DNA from: an uncultured Phascolarctobacterium sp.
Lineage (GTDB): Bacteria > Bacillota > Negativicutes > Acidaminococcales > Acidaminococcaceae
DNA: 64,000 nt
NCBI GenBank assembly: GCA_900544885.1
Contig: UQWU01000002.1
Span: forward strand, 23,057-87,056
Direction of reading: 5' to 3'
Shown: positions 23,141-30,405 of the stretch, in pieces
Numbering within the stretch: position 1 is the first letter of the stretch
Layout of the letters: each line of letters starts with the position of its first letter
Position numbers and translations under genes: made by a program
Notes under the pieces: generated by a model
Databases searched by the model: none
What the model was told of the DNA's origin: nothing
Seen by the model: only the letters and a program-made list of their open reading frames with translations

Positions 23141-23428
23141 ATGTCGGTGGTGATGAGCATGAGCACACAAACTCCTGATAAGGAACATATGCGTATGCTG
23201 GAAGCACTGGCTACAGTATCGTCATTAGCCTTTATGGCAGTGATTGATTTTCTGCTGGCGTATTTTGGTGGTAACTGGCTTGATAATTATTTTCAAACAG
23301 GGAATCATACTATGCGCGGTATCTGTATTGCATTGGCAATTATTTCACTAGTGATGACATATTACAATCTGATACAGAAGAGCATTCTGTCACGGGATGC
23401 TGAACAGAAAAAAGATAATGAAAAGTAA
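23141..23428 (+). CDS. atpZ: AtpZ/AtpI-family small membrane protein preceding the ATP synthase genes
   Basis: The 95-aa protein has the motif FGGNWLDNYFQTGNH, which resembles AtpZ (ATPase_gene1 family). The exact start is uncertain. Confidence 0.6.
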   Translation: MSVVMSMSTQTPDKEHMRMLEALATVSSLAFMAVIDFLLAYFGGNWLDNYFQTGNHTMRGICIALAIISLVMTYYNLIQKSILSRDAEQKKDNEK

Positions 23429-23825
23429 CTTTGATTTAACTTCCATTGCCAAAAGCGGTGGTAGCAAATTTGTTTCACGAATTGCCTTTTGTGCTTTAGT
23501 CATAGCTCTGCCGTTATGGCTGGGACTGAGAACGTCGTTTGCACACGGTGTCTTATGTGGAGTGCTCGCAGGTATTATTGACCTGTCCATTTTGTTCTTG
23601 GGCATTAAGAAAGCTTTGCCCTATGTAGAGGCTCCCAAGCAAGGTCTGAAAATCATGAAACGTTTCCGCTGGGCCCGTGTGGCAGCAGCAGCAGTTTTTA
23701 TTATTGCGATGTTAAAGATGAAACTAGCAGTGCATGGTGCATTTGCAGGGTTTCTTCTGATACATATATTCTTTATTCTAAATTTATTATTTATCGCGTA
23801 CCAACATAATCATGAGAGGGCGTGA
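23418..23825 (+). CDS. atpI: ATP synthase protein I
   Basis: The 135-aa protein has four TM helices and sits directly upstream of atpB. It overlaps the atpZ stop. Confidence 0.6.
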   Translation: MKSNFDLTSIAKSGGSKFVSRIAFCALVIALPLWLGLRTSFAHGVLCGVLAGIIDLSILFLGIKKALPYVEAPKQGLKIMKRFRWARVAAAAVFIIAMLKMKLAVHGAFAGFLLIHIFFILNLLFIAYQHNHERA

Positions 23826-24901: not shown

Positions 24902-25381
24902 TTGGTTAACTTTAATATGACACTTATCGCGCAAATCCTGAACTTTTTAGTTTTAGTTTTTGTCCTTGCAAAATTTGCTTACAAACCTGTAGTTAAAATT
25001 ATGGATGAACGTAAGAATAAAATTGCAAGCGATTTGGAAGCAGCTGAAAAAGCAAAAACTGATGCTGAAGCTGTTAAAGCAGAATATGCTGCTAAATTAG
25101 CTGAAGCTAAACAAGAAGCTCAAGCTATTATTGATGCTGCACGTAAAACTGCTCAAGCTGCTCATGATAAAATCATGGCTGACACCAAAGCTGAACAAGA
25201 TCAGGTTGTCGCAACTGCAAAAGAAGCAATCGCTATGGAAAAGAAAAAAGCTATGGACGACATTCGTGTCCAAGTTATTAACCTGTCCATGATTGCTGCT
25301 AGCAAAATTGTAGAACAAAAATTAGGTTCTGAAGAAGATAAACAAATGGCTGGCAAAATCGTTGATTCTATTATGAAATAA
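24902..25381 (+). CDS. atpF: F0F1 ATP synthase subunit b
   Basis: The 159-aa protein has a single N-terminal TM helix followed by a charged Ala/Lys/Glu-rich coiled coil. The TTG start follows AAAGGAG. Confidence 0.85.
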   Translation: MVNFNMTLIAQILNFLVLVFVLAKFAYKPVVKIMDERKNKIASDLEAAEKAKTDAEAVKAEYAAKLAEAKQEAQAIIDAARKTAQAAHDKIMADTKAEQDQVVATAKEAIAMEKKKAMDDIRVQVINLSMIAASKIVEQKLGSEEDKQMAGKIVDSIMK

Positions 25382-25474
25382 TTATTTTGCTGCTTTCCCT
25401 ATTAGGCCGGAAAGTATCTGCTGAACTGCGAATCAGTGTGATAAGAGCCGGTATTCGGAGGTGATTGGTACAAT

Positions 25475-27301
25475 ATGAAGAGTGAAGAAAATATTGCTTT
25501 ATTGAAGCAAGAATTGTCCGACTTCAAAATTGATCTGGGTTCTATTAAAGAACTGTTAGATGTTAATGTAACTACAGCCAAAAAACTGACTGTCGACGAG
25601 TATCAATCCATTTCTGCAATTCTCACCGAGAAACTGGGTCGCGAAATTTTCTTAAACAAGAAAGTAGATCCTTCTATCCTCGGCGGCATCATCGTACAAG
25701 TTGGCGATAAGGTATATGACGCTTCCGCTCTGCGTAAGCTGAAAAAAATGGAAGTAGCTCTGAATGGCATTGACATTCACGAATACACCAAACCTGAAGC
25801 TATGGGTGATGCTCTCAGCGCTAAGCTCGAGAATTACAAAGTGGATGCTGACCTTGAAGAAGTTGGTATCGTTGAAAAAATCGGTGACGGCATCGCAACT
25901 GTTATCGGTATGAAAAACGCAATGGCTGGCGAATTGGTTGAAATGCCCCATAACGTATCCGGCATGGTTCTGAACTTGAACCCTGATTCCGTTGGTATCG
26001 TATTAATGGGTGGCGAAACCAAAATTAAAGAAGGCGACATCGTTCGCCGTACCGGCCGCATCATGGAAGTTCCTGTTGGTGAAAACCTGCTGGGACGTGT
26101 AGTAAGTGCAATCGGTAATCCGATTGATGGCAAAGGCGAAATCGTTGCTGCTGCACATCGTCCGGTTGAATCTCCTGCACATGGTATCGCAGACCGTCAA
26201 CCGGTTGATACCCCGTTGCAAACCGGTATTAAATGTATCGACGCATTGGTTCCTATCGGACGTGGTCAGCGTGAATTAATCATCGGTGACCGTGGTACTG
26301 GTAAAACCGCTGTTGCAATCGATACTATCATCAACCAAAAAGGCTTAGGCGTTATCTGCATTTATGTAGCTATCGGCCAAAAAGCTTCTACTATTGCTCG
26401 TATTGTTCGTACTTTGGAACAACACGGTGCTATGGAATATACCATTATCGTAGCTGCTACTGCTGCTGACTCCGCTCCGCTGCAATATCTGGCTCCGTAT
26501 GCTGGCGTAACCATGGCTGAATACTTCATGGATCAAGGCAAAGACGTTCTGTGCGTATACGACGACCTGTCCAAACACGCTGTTGCATATCGTGCAATGT
26601 CCCTGCTGCTCCGCCGTCCGCCAGGACGTGAAGCTTACCCTGGTGACGTATTCTACTTGCATTCCCGTCTGTTGGAACGCGCTGCTCGTCTGAACGATGA
26701 ACTGAAAGGCGGTTCTATTACTGCTCTGCCTATCATCGAAACTCTGGCAGGTGACGTAGGCGGCTTCATTCCGACCAACGTAATTTCCATTACTGACGGT
26801 CAGATCTTCTTGGAATCTGAATTATTCTACGCAGGTATCCGTCCGGCTATTAACTCCGGTCTGTCCGTATCTCGTGTAGGTGGTGCTGCTCAGATTAAAG
26901 CTATGAAGCAAGTAGCTGGTACTTTACGTCTGGATTTGGCACAATTCCGCGAACTGGCAGCATTTGCTCAGTTTGCTTCTGACCTTGATAAAGCTACCAA
27001 AGCTCAATTGGACCGTGGTCAACGTCTGACCGAAGTTCTGAAACAAGGCCAATACAGCCCGCTGTCTGTTGAAAAACAAGTTATGGCAATTTACCTTGGC
27101 ACTAAAGGTTACCTGGATGACGTAGCAGTTAAAGACGTAACTCGCTGCGAAAAAGAATTCCTGGAATTCATGGCTGCAAACCATCCTGAAGTTGGTGCAG
27201 ACATCCTCAGCGCTAAGAAAATCACTGACGAAAATGAAGAAGCATTGAAGAAAGCTATCGCCGAGTTCAAGGAAACCTTTGTATCCAGTGAAGGCAGGTG
27301 A
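25475..27301 (+). CDS. atpH-atpA: In-frame fusion ORF: ATP synthase delta (OSCP) C-terminal domain (about aa 1-97) plus the full alpha subunit (aa about 100-608)
   Basis: The N-terminal part ([60 protein letters not shown]) matches the delta C-terminal domain. From [16 protein letters not shown] onward it matches alpha, including the Walker A GDRGTGKT. There is no stop between the two parts. Confidence 0.75.
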
Positions 27302-27308
27302 TTAACTG

Positions 27309-28193
27309 ATGGCAACTGCACGCGAGATTCATCGCCACATGAAAAGCGTAGGTAACATCGGTAAGATCACTAAAGCTATGAAGATGGTTGCTGCTGCTCG
27401 TCTTAGACGTGCTCAAGAAAAAGCTGCTGCTAGCCGTCCTTATGCTATCAAGATCAAAGAAGTGTTATCCAGCGTTGTGAGCGATCCGAGCATTCTTGCA
27501 GGCCTTAGTGCCAAAAAACACCCGCTGCTTCAACATCGTGAAGTTAAAAAAGTTGGTTATCTGGTACTCGCCTCTGATAAAGGTCTGGCTGGTGCATATA
27601 GCTCCAATGCTCTGAAATTAGCTGTGGCTGAAATTTCTGCTTGTGATGACGAAGTTGTCGTTATTACCAGTGGCCGTAAGGCAAGAGATTTCTTCAACCG
27701 CCGTGGTTATAAAGTATTGAGTGCACATTTCGGTTATTCTGACAGACCTACATATGCTAACGCTGCTGAAATTGCTCAAGATGCAATTGCACAATTTGCT
27801 GATGAGCATTTTGATGAACTGCGTATTGTATATACAATTTTTAAAACTGCTTTGTCCCAGACTCCTACCTGCGAAAAAATTCTGCCGGTAGAGCCTCCTG
27901 TTAAGGAAAAAGGCAAAGCAAGTGCTTCATTTATCTTTGAACCTAGCGAAGACGAAACTTTACAAGTACTTGCTCCTAAGTATTTGGAAACCGTAGTTTA
28001 CGCTGCTCTGGTACAATCTGCTGCCAGTGAATTAGGTTCTCGTATGACTGCAATGTCTTCTGCAACTGACAACGCTGCAAAACTGGTACAAAACCTGGAG
28101 CTGTCTTACAATAAGGCACGCCAGGCTTCCATTACCCGTGAGCTTAACGAAATCGTTGGCGGCGTAGAAGCTTTGAAACAGTCTCAAAACTAA
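27309..28193 (+). CDS. atpG: F0F1 ATP synthase subunit gamma
   Basis: The protein has MATAREIHRHMKSVGNIGKITKAMKMVAAARLRRAQ and the gamma C-terminus QASITRELNEIVGG. Confidence 0.9.
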   Translation: MATAREIHRHMKSVGNIGKITKAMKMVAAARLRRAQEKAAASRPYAIKIKEVLSSVVSDPSILAGLSAKKHPLLQHREVKKVGYLVLASDKGLAGAYSSNALKLAVAEISACDDEVVVITSGRKARDFFNRRGYKVLSAHFGYSDRPTYANAAEIAQDAIAQFADEHFDELRIVYTIFKTALSQTPTCEKILPVEPPVKEKGKASASFIFEPSEDETLQVLAPKYLETVVYAALVQSAASELGSRMTAMSSATDNAAKLVQNLELSYNKARQASITRELNEIVGGVEALKQSQN

Positions 28194-29636
<1,443 letters not shown>

Positions 29637-29638
29637 TA

Positions 29639-30049
29639 ATGGCTACACCTTTTACATTTGAAATTGTCACTCCGGATAAAATGCTTTTTTTTGCTGAAAA
29701 TGTAACTTATGTTGGCTTCCGTGCACTGTCCGGCAACTTAGGTATTAAAGCAAGACATATGCCGATTATCGCAACTCTGGACATCTCTCCGATGAAAATT
29801 GAGTTCACCGATGGTACCGATATGGAATTTGCTGTTTGCGGCGGTTTTCTGGAAATGAAAGACAATAAATGTACTGTTTTAGCAACTATTGCTGAAGCTG
29901 GTGCAGATATTGATACTGCTCGTGCAACTGCAGCCAAAGAACGTGCAGAACAACGTCTGGCTTCTAAAAGTGCTGATGTCGACTCTGCTCGTGCTGAACG
30001 TGCATTAAAAAGAGCAATGGCTCGTCTGCGTGCCGCTCATAAAGCATAA
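29639..30049 (+). CDS. atpC: F0F1 ATP synthase subunit epsilon
   Basis: The 136-aa protein has an N-terminal beta-sandwich and a C-terminal helical hairpin. It follows atpD directly. Confidence 0.85.
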   Translation: MATPFTFEIVTPDKMLFFAENVTYVGFRALSGNLGIKARHMPIIATLDISPMKIEFTDGTDMEFAVCGGFLEMKDNKCTVLATIAEAGADIDTARATAAKERAEQRLASKSADVDSARAERALKRAMARLRAAHKA

Positions 30050-30075
30050 AAGCATTCAAGACAATACAAATTTAA

Positions 30076-30110
30076 AGACTCTGTCCCAATTTGGGACGGA
30101 GTCTTTTTTA
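30076..30110 (+). terminator. Rho-independent terminator after the atp operon
   Basis: AGACTCTGTCCCA att TGGGACGGAGTCT is followed by TTTTTT. Confidence 0.85.
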
Positions 30111-30219
30111 TTGCCTTAAAATGTGCCATTATGCTAACTTTCCACTATTGTCACAGTTTAAGACTTGCATAAAATACTTGCTTATAGTATTCTATAATAG
30201 TAAAAAGGAGGAGTGTGAG

Positions 30220-30405
30220 ATGGCTGACATTATTGAGAGCCTTGCTGGTAATAAAATGCTCATGCTCAAGGAGGATATTGCATTTCTGCGTAAACGTTTA
30301 GCGGAATGTGCAGATGAGGACGCGAAGAAAGCAATTCGTCGAGAGCTGATGGAAAAAGAGACTTATTATAATATTCTCGCAGACCGCCAGCGGATTAATT
30401 TCTAA
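30220..30405 (+). CDS. Small (61-aa) charged helical protein of unknown function
   Basis: The ATG at 30220 follows the RBS AAAAGGAGGAG. The protein is MADIIESLAGNKMLMLKEDIAFLRKRLAECADEDAKKAIRRELMEKETYYNILADRQRINF. It has its own terminator. Confidence 0.5.
   Translation: MADIIESLAGNKMLMLKEDIAFLRKRLAECADEDAKKAIRRELMEKETYYNILADRQRINF

Follow-up and report, generated by a model that had tools for sequence, protein, structure and literature searches.

The window analyzed here, a stretch of 64,000 nucleotides (nt) from an uncultured Phascolarctobacterium sp. (assembly GCA_900544885.1, contig UQWU01000002.1, positions 23,057-87,056, forward strand), contains a complete F-type ATP synthase operon on its + strand. 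In this operon, a delta subunit that lacks its N-terminal domain is encoded together with the alpha subunit in one continuous open reading frame (ORF) of 608 amino acids (aa). It is virtually certain that this fusion is real. The more comprehensive proposal, namely, that Phascolarctobacterium possesses in this gene a genuine natural deltaDeltaN-alpha fusion of ancient origin, maintained by selection, and that the gene gives rise to an enzyme with several peripheral stalks, is one that we favour to a moderate degree.

The start and the extent of the ORF are as given in the initial annotation of this region, and the assignment of its domains is far beyond chance. Positions 82-172 of the 172-position Pfam profile OSCP (PF00213) match aa 7-96 with an E value of 1.6e-19, whereas nothing in the ORF matches profile positions 1-81. 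This bears out the earlier view that the first 97 or so codons correspond to delta/OSCP's C-terminal domain only. The delta profile TIGR01145 reaches 60.6 bits with the fused protein (cut-off 57.5). As had also been noted, the frame then continues without a stop codon into alpha: the alpha domains PF02874, PF00006, and PF00306 all match after the OSCP part, and the NCBIfam atpA equivalog TIGR00962 aligns with its positions 5-502 to aa 108-603 at 802.2 bits (cut-off 484.45). In the alignment with canonical deltas, which are about 180 aa long, the fused proteins start about 85 residues into the canonical sequence and finish at its end, with the leading helix of the delta part being the equivalent of the last helix, or the hinge, of the canonical delta. 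A structural model of aa 1-133 generated with AlphaFold2 (AF2) was used for the topology and the superposition of the delta C-terminal domain (C-domain) only, and not for the placement of the N-terminal helix or the linker. The strand/helix core of this model superposes on solved delta/OSCP C-domains with 1.3-2.5 Å over 64-77 residues, and chains of the structure 9jc1, discussed below, were also among the matches. The delta C-domain very probably remains the anchor of the dimer of b subunits (b2), and the product of atpF is expected to be its partner.

The fused frame is a property of the genus rather than of a single contig. A pattern scan with one genome per species yielded 71 loci, 68 of which are from genomes of Phascolarctobacterium or Acidaminococcaceae. 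Alignment of the related atpH-atpA regions, which the initial annotation had suggested as a check, revealed fusion in 63 of 63 complete ORFs and separate delta and alpha ORFs in none. These ORFs are 607-612 aa long and start with MKxEEN(I/V)A; in four further ORFs, truncated by a contig end, the frame likewise passes through the junction. The fused set contains P. succinatutens YIT 12067 and P. faecium DSM 14760, which are isolates. Furthermore, PF00213 and the alpha domains are present in all of the best 120 database homologues of the whole protein, one of which was found on 664 contigs; the public name, where one is given, is "F0F1 ATP synthase subunit alpha".

The junction of the two parts contains a run of seven A residues (A7), and the initial annotation had left three options for this site: a true fusion, a miscall in the homopolymer, or a site of regulated slippage. 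An artefact of base calling at the A7 run, or programmed ribosomal or transcriptional slippage that normally separates delta and alpha, could be suspected because the run is located exactly at the junction and each alternative frame meets a stop codon within 10 codons. With one A fewer, a TAG would arise at 25755-25757 in window coordinates, that is, at 25754-25756 after the deletion, as had been proposed; with one A more, a TGA would arise at 25771-25773 in window coordinates, 4 nt away from the position 25767-25769 indicated before. In addition, a few metagenomic fragments, for example, P0018 and P0025-P0030, are frameshifted. However, these breaks are scattered over differing positions on short contigs, as is typical of assembly errors, and the comparison of the 63 complete fused ORFs is incompatible with a role of the run. 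The A7 sequence is present in 4 of them, whereas the longest A run at the junction of the other 59 is 2 to 5 nt; all 63 nevertheless share the same frame, including some that do not contain the Lys-Lys codons at all. The usual junction sequence is CTGAAGAAGATG or CTGAAGAAAATG (with AAGAAG or AAGAAA), and Lys-Lys-Met is wholly absent in the divergent loci L052, L060-L062, L063, and L067. No slippery homopolymer that was conserved despite synonymous options was found in this set, and the length of the junction changes by whole codons only (45-48 aa from DAS to EEVG).

Pairwise ratios of nonsynonymous to synonymous substitutions (dN/dS, at dS of about 1) were 0.08 for the delta part (aa 1-97), 0.22 for the junction (aa 98-125), which is thus looser than its flanks and still constrained, and 0.06 for the alpha core (aa 126-608). 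Therefore, the delta part is translated and is constrained nearly as tightly as the catalytic subunit. Furthermore, even a separated delta product would lack the N-terminal domain (N-domain). Hence, on comparative grounds, both a sequencing error and programmed slippage can be considered excluded, the probability of either being close to nil, and the A7 run is incidental, without being a functional element. Of the three options, only the true fusion stood.

The initial annotation had further stated that the N-domain of delta is nowhere upstream. To examine this region, a hidden Markov model (HMM) of the delta N-domain was built from 19 canonical deltas and applied to six-frame translations of 681 kb comprising the 64-kb window and the related loci. 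The only hit was the positive control, the delta of locus L069, which was recovered at E = 6e-12, and the best other match had an E value above 5. Locus L069, from a metagenome-assembled genome of the Actinomycetota, had itself been a candidate for an independent fusion, with aa 32-223 of the query matched in one piece; it actually encodes a 179-aa delta, a stop codon, and alpha in the same frame. No separate delta gene was found in the operon of the window, and no remnant of the N-domain was detectable in the spacer, 93 nt long, that separates atpF from the fused gene.

The features reported earlier for this spacer are all present, that is, its length of 93 nt from the atpF stop codon (25379-25381) to the ATG, an in-frame TAA at 25442-25444, and a good ribosome-binding site, GGAGGTGA. 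Across the related loci, the start ATG is conserved, GGAGG or TGAGG precedes it with constant spacing in 67 of 67 cases, and in many loci there is a stop codon just two codons upstream of the ATG. Therefore, there is no space for a delta N-domain, and the conclusion that delta is N-terminally truncated was upheld. The spacer shows some further peculiarities. The distance from GGAGG to ATG, 13 nt, is unusually long and invariant. Blocks of the spacer are conserved across the genus, including TTTTGCTGCTTTCCCTATTAGGCCGGA and GCCGGTATTCGGAGGTGATTGGTACAATATG, and 14-15 of 16 loci retain a GCCGG/CCGGT stem, which encloses a variable hairpin and shows one compensatory change. The single-sequence fold of the spacer/leader is modestly stable (z = -2.0). 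The spacer may be a translational control element.

To trace the spread of the fusion, residues 1-143 were first compared exhaustively by HMMER with 1.84 billion representative proteins, and a profile search was then made. Further lineages were found in the form of fragments that consist of about 30 N-terminal residues, the delta C-domain, a short linker, and alpha, with an N-terminal identity of 31-60%; one of these divergent fragments is an NCBI record labelled "Acidaminococcaceae bacterium". Three divergent fragments were looked up, and all of them are located within an a-c-b-fusion-gamma operon as in the window. Two of the three loci also have flanking genes in common with the window, namely, an epimerase upstream and, in one case, murA and mreB downstream. 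The truncation boundary is identical across all lineages, which points to a single ancestral event in Acidaminococcaceae.

In three divergent relatives (L072:2970-4819, L073:6001-7849, and L074:6001-7807), the fused gene was called as two ORFs because of a frameshift inside the alpha core, not at the delta-alpha junction. These frameshifts are most likely assembly errors in metagenomic contigs, and frameshifts of this kind are the reason that many database entries for the fused protein are short fragments. Two fragments of the representative library from seemingly unrelated lineages, P0222 and P0282, have a delta C-terminal end that continues into an alpha N-terminus without a stop codon, and the alpha N-terminus of one of them looks proteobacterial. 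Errors, fragments cut at contig edges, and further independent delta-alpha fusions are all possible explanations.

A natural delta-alpha fusion without an N-domain has been described for Acidaminococcus fermentans (D2RLW6), along with G4Q3K6 and A0A1I2C5T3, and a multi-stalk enzyme was predicted by the authors for the A. fermentans fusion (Discussion and Supplementary Fig. 9 in PMC12229609). Acidaminococcus is, like Phascolarctobacterium, a genus of the family Acidaminococcaceae. Judged by the published description, the two genes have the same operon position and the same organization, a delta without N-domain fused to alpha, and differ in that the window fusion is from a different genus. The A. 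fermentans fusion is most likely an orthologue of the window gene, with a common origin in a single ancestral event. No mention of Phascolarctobacterium was found in that paper or its supplementary material, and our literature searches retrieved neither a follow-up on native fused enzymes nor a report on Phascolarctobacterium in the context of the fusion. Thus, the window gene adds a new genus, throughout which the fusion is present, to a kind of gene that was first pointed out in 2025 in the sister genus; it does not represent a new class.

The functional meaning of the fusion depends on whether every alpha subunit carries the delta part. Stoichiometry might be corrected after transcription, with free alpha being produced by internal initiation or by proteolysis of the linker, so that the complex would contain one fused and two plain alpha subunits. 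The window contains two in-frame Met codons near the junction, M92 and M109, that could serve for internal initiation. Codons 75 to about 130 were examined in 67 loci for an in-frame ATG, GTG, or TTG with a Shine-Dalgarno motif upstream, and no internal Met or Shine-Dalgarno motif proved to be conserved in these loci. In the whole P. succinatutens group, the position of M109 is occupied by Leu, M92 is missing in the lineages of L052, L060-L062, L063, and L067, and the more distant lineages do not contain an aligned conserved Met. The only candidate that scored was an in-frame GTG five codons before EEVG, which is preceded by GGAG in 35 of the 67 loci; however, in 23 loci, including the window, the GTG is kept while the GGAG has been lost via synonymous changes, and the remaining divergent loci do not have the GTG. 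We therefore regard a supply of free alpha as quite improbable, and, as far as can be judged from the genes, every alpha should carry a delta C-domain.

A fusion of the same design has been constructed in the laboratory. In the ATP synthase of Bacillus PS3, residues 2-104 of delta were deleted, and the C-domain (residues 105-178) was joined via a short linker to the N-terminus of alpha; the rationale was that the delta N-domain on the pseudo-threefold axis restricts the enzyme to one stalk (Nat Commun 2025;16:5410, PMC12229609). Cryo-electron microscopy (cryo-EM; PDB 9JC1) revealed about two b2 stalks on average and up to three, each with an a-subunit. The engineered enzyme had an H+/ATP ratio of 5.8, compared with 3.0 for the wild type, the proton-motive force (pmf) at equilibrium was halved, and ATP was synthesized at about half the pmf (PMC12229609).

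The window protein and chain 9jc1_I form one collinear alignment (aa 34-605 to chain positions 10-579, E = 9.5e-213). There is a single one-residue gap at the junction, and this gap is in the linker, where NGIDIH is opposite the designed GGSGG. In both proteins, the delta N-domain is gone and the delta C-domain's C-terminus is linked to the N-terminus of alpha, and in both cases the rest of the operon is canonical. The differences are that the window gene arose in nature, is ancient, and evolves under purifying selection; that the sequence identity in the delta part is low; that epsilon is full-length in the window, whereas the engineered enzyme lacks the epsilon C-domain; and that the stalks and the ion/ATP ratio were measured for the PS3 enzyme, while the natural enzyme is known here from its genes alone.

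The likeness to the engineered enzyme suggests the following mechanism. The stretch of approximately 85 residues that has been deleted from the start of delta is the helical bundle whose usual place is on the pseudo-threefold axis of alpha3beta3, where it holds the N-termini of alpha in a clamp. The b-binding C-domain is joined to alpha's N-terminal helix via about six residues, and each alpha in the alpha3beta3 head would thus carry its own b2 docking site, while the threefold symmetry would be left unbroken in the absence of the delta N-domain. The loss of this symmetry-breaking domain would allow more than one peripheral stalk, and, because there would also be a docking site on every alpha, two or three stalks and a-subunits could bind. 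By analogy with the PS3 structure 9JC1, the number of b2 stalks on the native enzyme would most likely exceed one and might reach three, with a separate a subunit for each stalk. The number of ions that cross the membrane per rotation would increase, the ion/ATP ratio would be higher, and ATP could be synthesized at a low ion-motive force. Going by this analogy, a multi-stalk enzyme with a high ion/ATP ratio appears to be the likeliest function of the fusion, and we consider the chances that there is more than one stalk per complex in vivo to be evenly balanced. The initial annotation had suggested that the fusion replaces the contact between the N-domain and alpha. This idea agrees with the design rationale of the PS3 construct (PMC12229609), but the likely consequence exceeds that of a substitute tether.

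It could be argued that the fusion is real and the enzyme has a single stalk all the same. In that case, the link would only replace the contact of the N-domain with alpha, two of the three delta C-domains would be idle, and the ion/ATP ratio would be ordinary. Many of the engineered particles had a single stalk, which the authors attributed largely to loss during grid preparation (PMC12229609). Moreover, atpB and atpF of the window are single-copy genes without an obvious dosage signal, and no terminator-like site, which was searched for as a possible sign of differential a/b dosage, was found between atpF and the fused gene. The extra N-terminal helix in the AF2 model (aa 3-15), which is not part of the engineered chain, might fill the centre of the crown. 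On the other hand, removal of the N-domain together with fusion was sufficient for two stalks and two a-subunits on average in PS3 (PMC12229609), and it is hard to see what would bar further b2 dimers from three equivalent docking domains that are as strongly conserved as the delta part is (dN/dS of 0.08). Altogether, a single-stalk enzyme seems less likely to us, but it is a serious rival.

Several points weigh against a natural multi-stalk enzyme. The engineered enzyme is heterogeneous, with one to three stalks, and less active (PMC12229609). The window protein has about 25-30 more N-terminal residues, a helix and a loop, than the engineered PS3 chain, and these could restrict the number of stalks. 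The confidence of the AF2 model is low, with a mean predicted local distance difference test (pLDDT) score of 55.9. The absence of a second full-length delta applies to the 64 kb of the window and to flanks of about 4 kb to either side of the related loci. Residues Q32/E65/S66/T67/Y70 of the Na+-specific c subunit of Ilyobacter tartaricus (1YCE) correspond to N33/E66/S67/M68/L71 in the c subunit of the window; only the Glu-Ser pair of the Na+ signature is kept, and the coupling ion may be Na+ or H+. Beyond the architecture, everything proposed here is an analogy with an engineered enzyme of a thermophile.

Energetic considerations bear on the multi-stalk reading as well. Succinate decarboxylation yields only about 20 kJ/mol, and a decarboxylase that translocates two ions per turnover can build up a gradient of at most about 100 mV. 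At such a gradient, about six or more ions would then be needed per ATP, which, to our knowledge, exceeds the capacity of the known c-rings that operate with one a-subunit. P. faecium grows on succinate and expresses the genes for a sodium-translocating methylmalonyl-CoA decarboxylase; the model cited for this metabolism is Propionigenium modestum, in which the Na+ gradient generated by the decarboxylase is the sole driver of ATP synthesis (PMC7568257). In a proteomic study of the chicken caecum, ATP synthase alpha and beta were detected in all strains except three that were named, and Phascolarctobacterium sp. ET69 was not one of these, so that, by implication, alpha and beta were detected in this strain (PMC11204068). 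A multi-stalk enzyme fits an organism that decarboxylates succinate with an ion-pumping methylmalonyl-CoA decarboxylase. Specifically, the F1Fo of Phascolarctobacterium might contain two or three b2 stalks and a-subunits per c-ring and have an ion/ATP ratio about two to three times that of c-ring/3, as an adaptation of these gut bacteria, and of their relatives in the Acidaminococcaceae, to the tiny ion-motive force obtained from succinate or glutaconyl-CoA decarboxylation. We put this forward tentatively, as a proposal that falls slightly short of an even chance.

Several other systems share some features with the window fusion. The F1Fo of Chloroflexus aurantiacus naturally has two stalks and two a-subunits, which are held by a delta dimer with a shortened N-domain (PMC12002316). 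It resembles the window enzyme in being a natural F-type enzyme with an altered delta N-domain, which there permits multiple stalks and a-subunits, and the fold of its delta C-domain (9itj_S) is matched by the predicted structure of the window protein. However, the delta of Chloroflexus is a separate protein whose shortened four-helix N-domain dimerizes on the crown, whereas the window protein lacks the N-domain altogether and each alpha has the C-domain joined to it covalently. The mycobacterial b-delta fusion (NF009961; for example, PDB 7JG5 chain d) is likewise a natural stator fusion that involves delta and has a homologous C-domain. In contrast to the window fusion, the partner is b, which is N-terminal to a full-length delta, and the N-domain is retained and there is one stalk. 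On the window, NF009961 reaches 28.8 bits in the delta part and 48.1 bits in b, both far below the cut-off of 328, and a b-delta fusion is not present, given that atpF ends with a TAA at 25379-25381 that is followed by the spacer. The A-/V-type ATPases, with two or three EG stalks, are similar in the outcome only, that is, several stator stalks around one head; their stalk proteins are unrelated, and they have a single membrane a-subunit (the Thermus V/A-ATPase is contrasted in PMC12002316).

The wider search also uncovered deltas with several C-domains. P0157 (L075:4175-5257), P0161, P0167, P0159, P0164, P0172, P0173, and P0185, with lengths of 285-412 aa, combine a normal N-domain with two or three OSCP C-domains that follow it in tandem. 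P0157, with three OSCP stretches, lies at the place of atpH in an a-c-b-delta-alpha-gamma-beta operon that is ordinary in other respects, on a metagenome contig of the Joint Genome Institute (JGI). Such tandem deltas, of which we saw no mention in PMC12229609 or PMC12002316, may be a different natural way to present several b2 docking sites. Another group, P0169 (L077:327-764), P0168, P0170, P0176, and P0183, comprises proteins of about 145 aa with two OSCP C-domains and no N-domain. The gene on L077 is located between a b-like ORF and an alpha ORF and thus represents a second type of delta without an N-domain, one that is not fused.

The organization of the operon and of the fused gene is summarized in Table 1. 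Directly after the terminator-like hairpin that follows atpC, a 104-aa ORF (30091-30405) without a Pfam match is present.

Table 1. Features of the atp operon and of the deltaDeltaN-alpha gene (positions in the window).
Feature	Position	Strand	Basis or remark
Small membrane ORF	23141-23428	+	Weak, sub-threshold AtpZ-like Pfam match
Small ORF at the usual atpI position	23397-23825	+	No Pfam match
atpB, a subunit, 238 aa	23844-24560	+	PF00119, E 1.9e-47
atpE, c subunit, 87 aa	24601-24864	+	PF00137, E 1.3e-16
atpF, b subunit, 159 aa, separate ORF	24902-25381	+	PF00430, E 2e-30; TIGR01144, 109.8 bits
Spacer between atpF and fused gene, 93 nt	25382-25474	+	Alignment and RNAalifold, 16 loci
Shine-Dalgarno motif GGAGGTGA of the fused gene	25457-25464	+	Read from the sequence
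Fused deltaDeltaN-alpha gene, 608 aa plus stop	25475-27301	+	Pfam OSCP and three alpha domains; NCBIfam atpA equivalog
Delta (OSCP) part, aa 1-97: leading helix, then complete b-binding C-terminal domain	25475-25765	+	OSCP profile; alignment with canonical deltas
A7 run in codons K90 and K91 and the A of M92	25742-25748	+	Incidental
Junction, aa 98-125: linker NGIDIH of about 6 residues and alpha N-terminal amphipathic helix	25766-25849	+	Alignment to the engineered junction
Alpha core, aa 126-608: beta-barrel, nucleotide-binding, and C-terminal domains	25850-27298	+	PF02874, PF00006, PF00306
atpG, gamma, canonical	27309-28193	+	Pfam
atpD, beta, canonical	28224-29636	+	Pfam
atpC, epsilon, canonical, full-length	29639-30049	+	Pfam
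Strong terminator-like hairpin after atpC, 15 bp stem and T run	30074-30106	+	

The H+(Na+)/ATP ratio is a basic bioenergetic parameter that has long been held to be set by the size of the c-ring only. In 2025, this ratio was doubled in an engineered fusion by multiplying the stalks and the a-subunits (PMC12229609). The results described above show that the engineered design exists in nature, as a fixed and strongly selected gene throughout Phascolarctobacterium. Phascolarctobacterium is an abundant, culturable genus of the human gut whose energy comes from succinate decarboxylation, among the lowest-energy lifestyles known, and it thus offers both a physiological rationale and a tractable organism for asking whether natural multi-stalk F-ATP synthases with a high ion/ATP ratio exist. 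A practical consequence concerns annotation: the fused proteins are named plain alpha in public records, so that delta could mistakenly be counted as absent when pathways are reconstructed. If the multi-stalk reading is true, the tandem and the double C-domain deltas would be independent natural routes to multi-stalk F-ATP synthases, and such enzymes would be a recurrent natural strategy and more than a laboratory curiosity.

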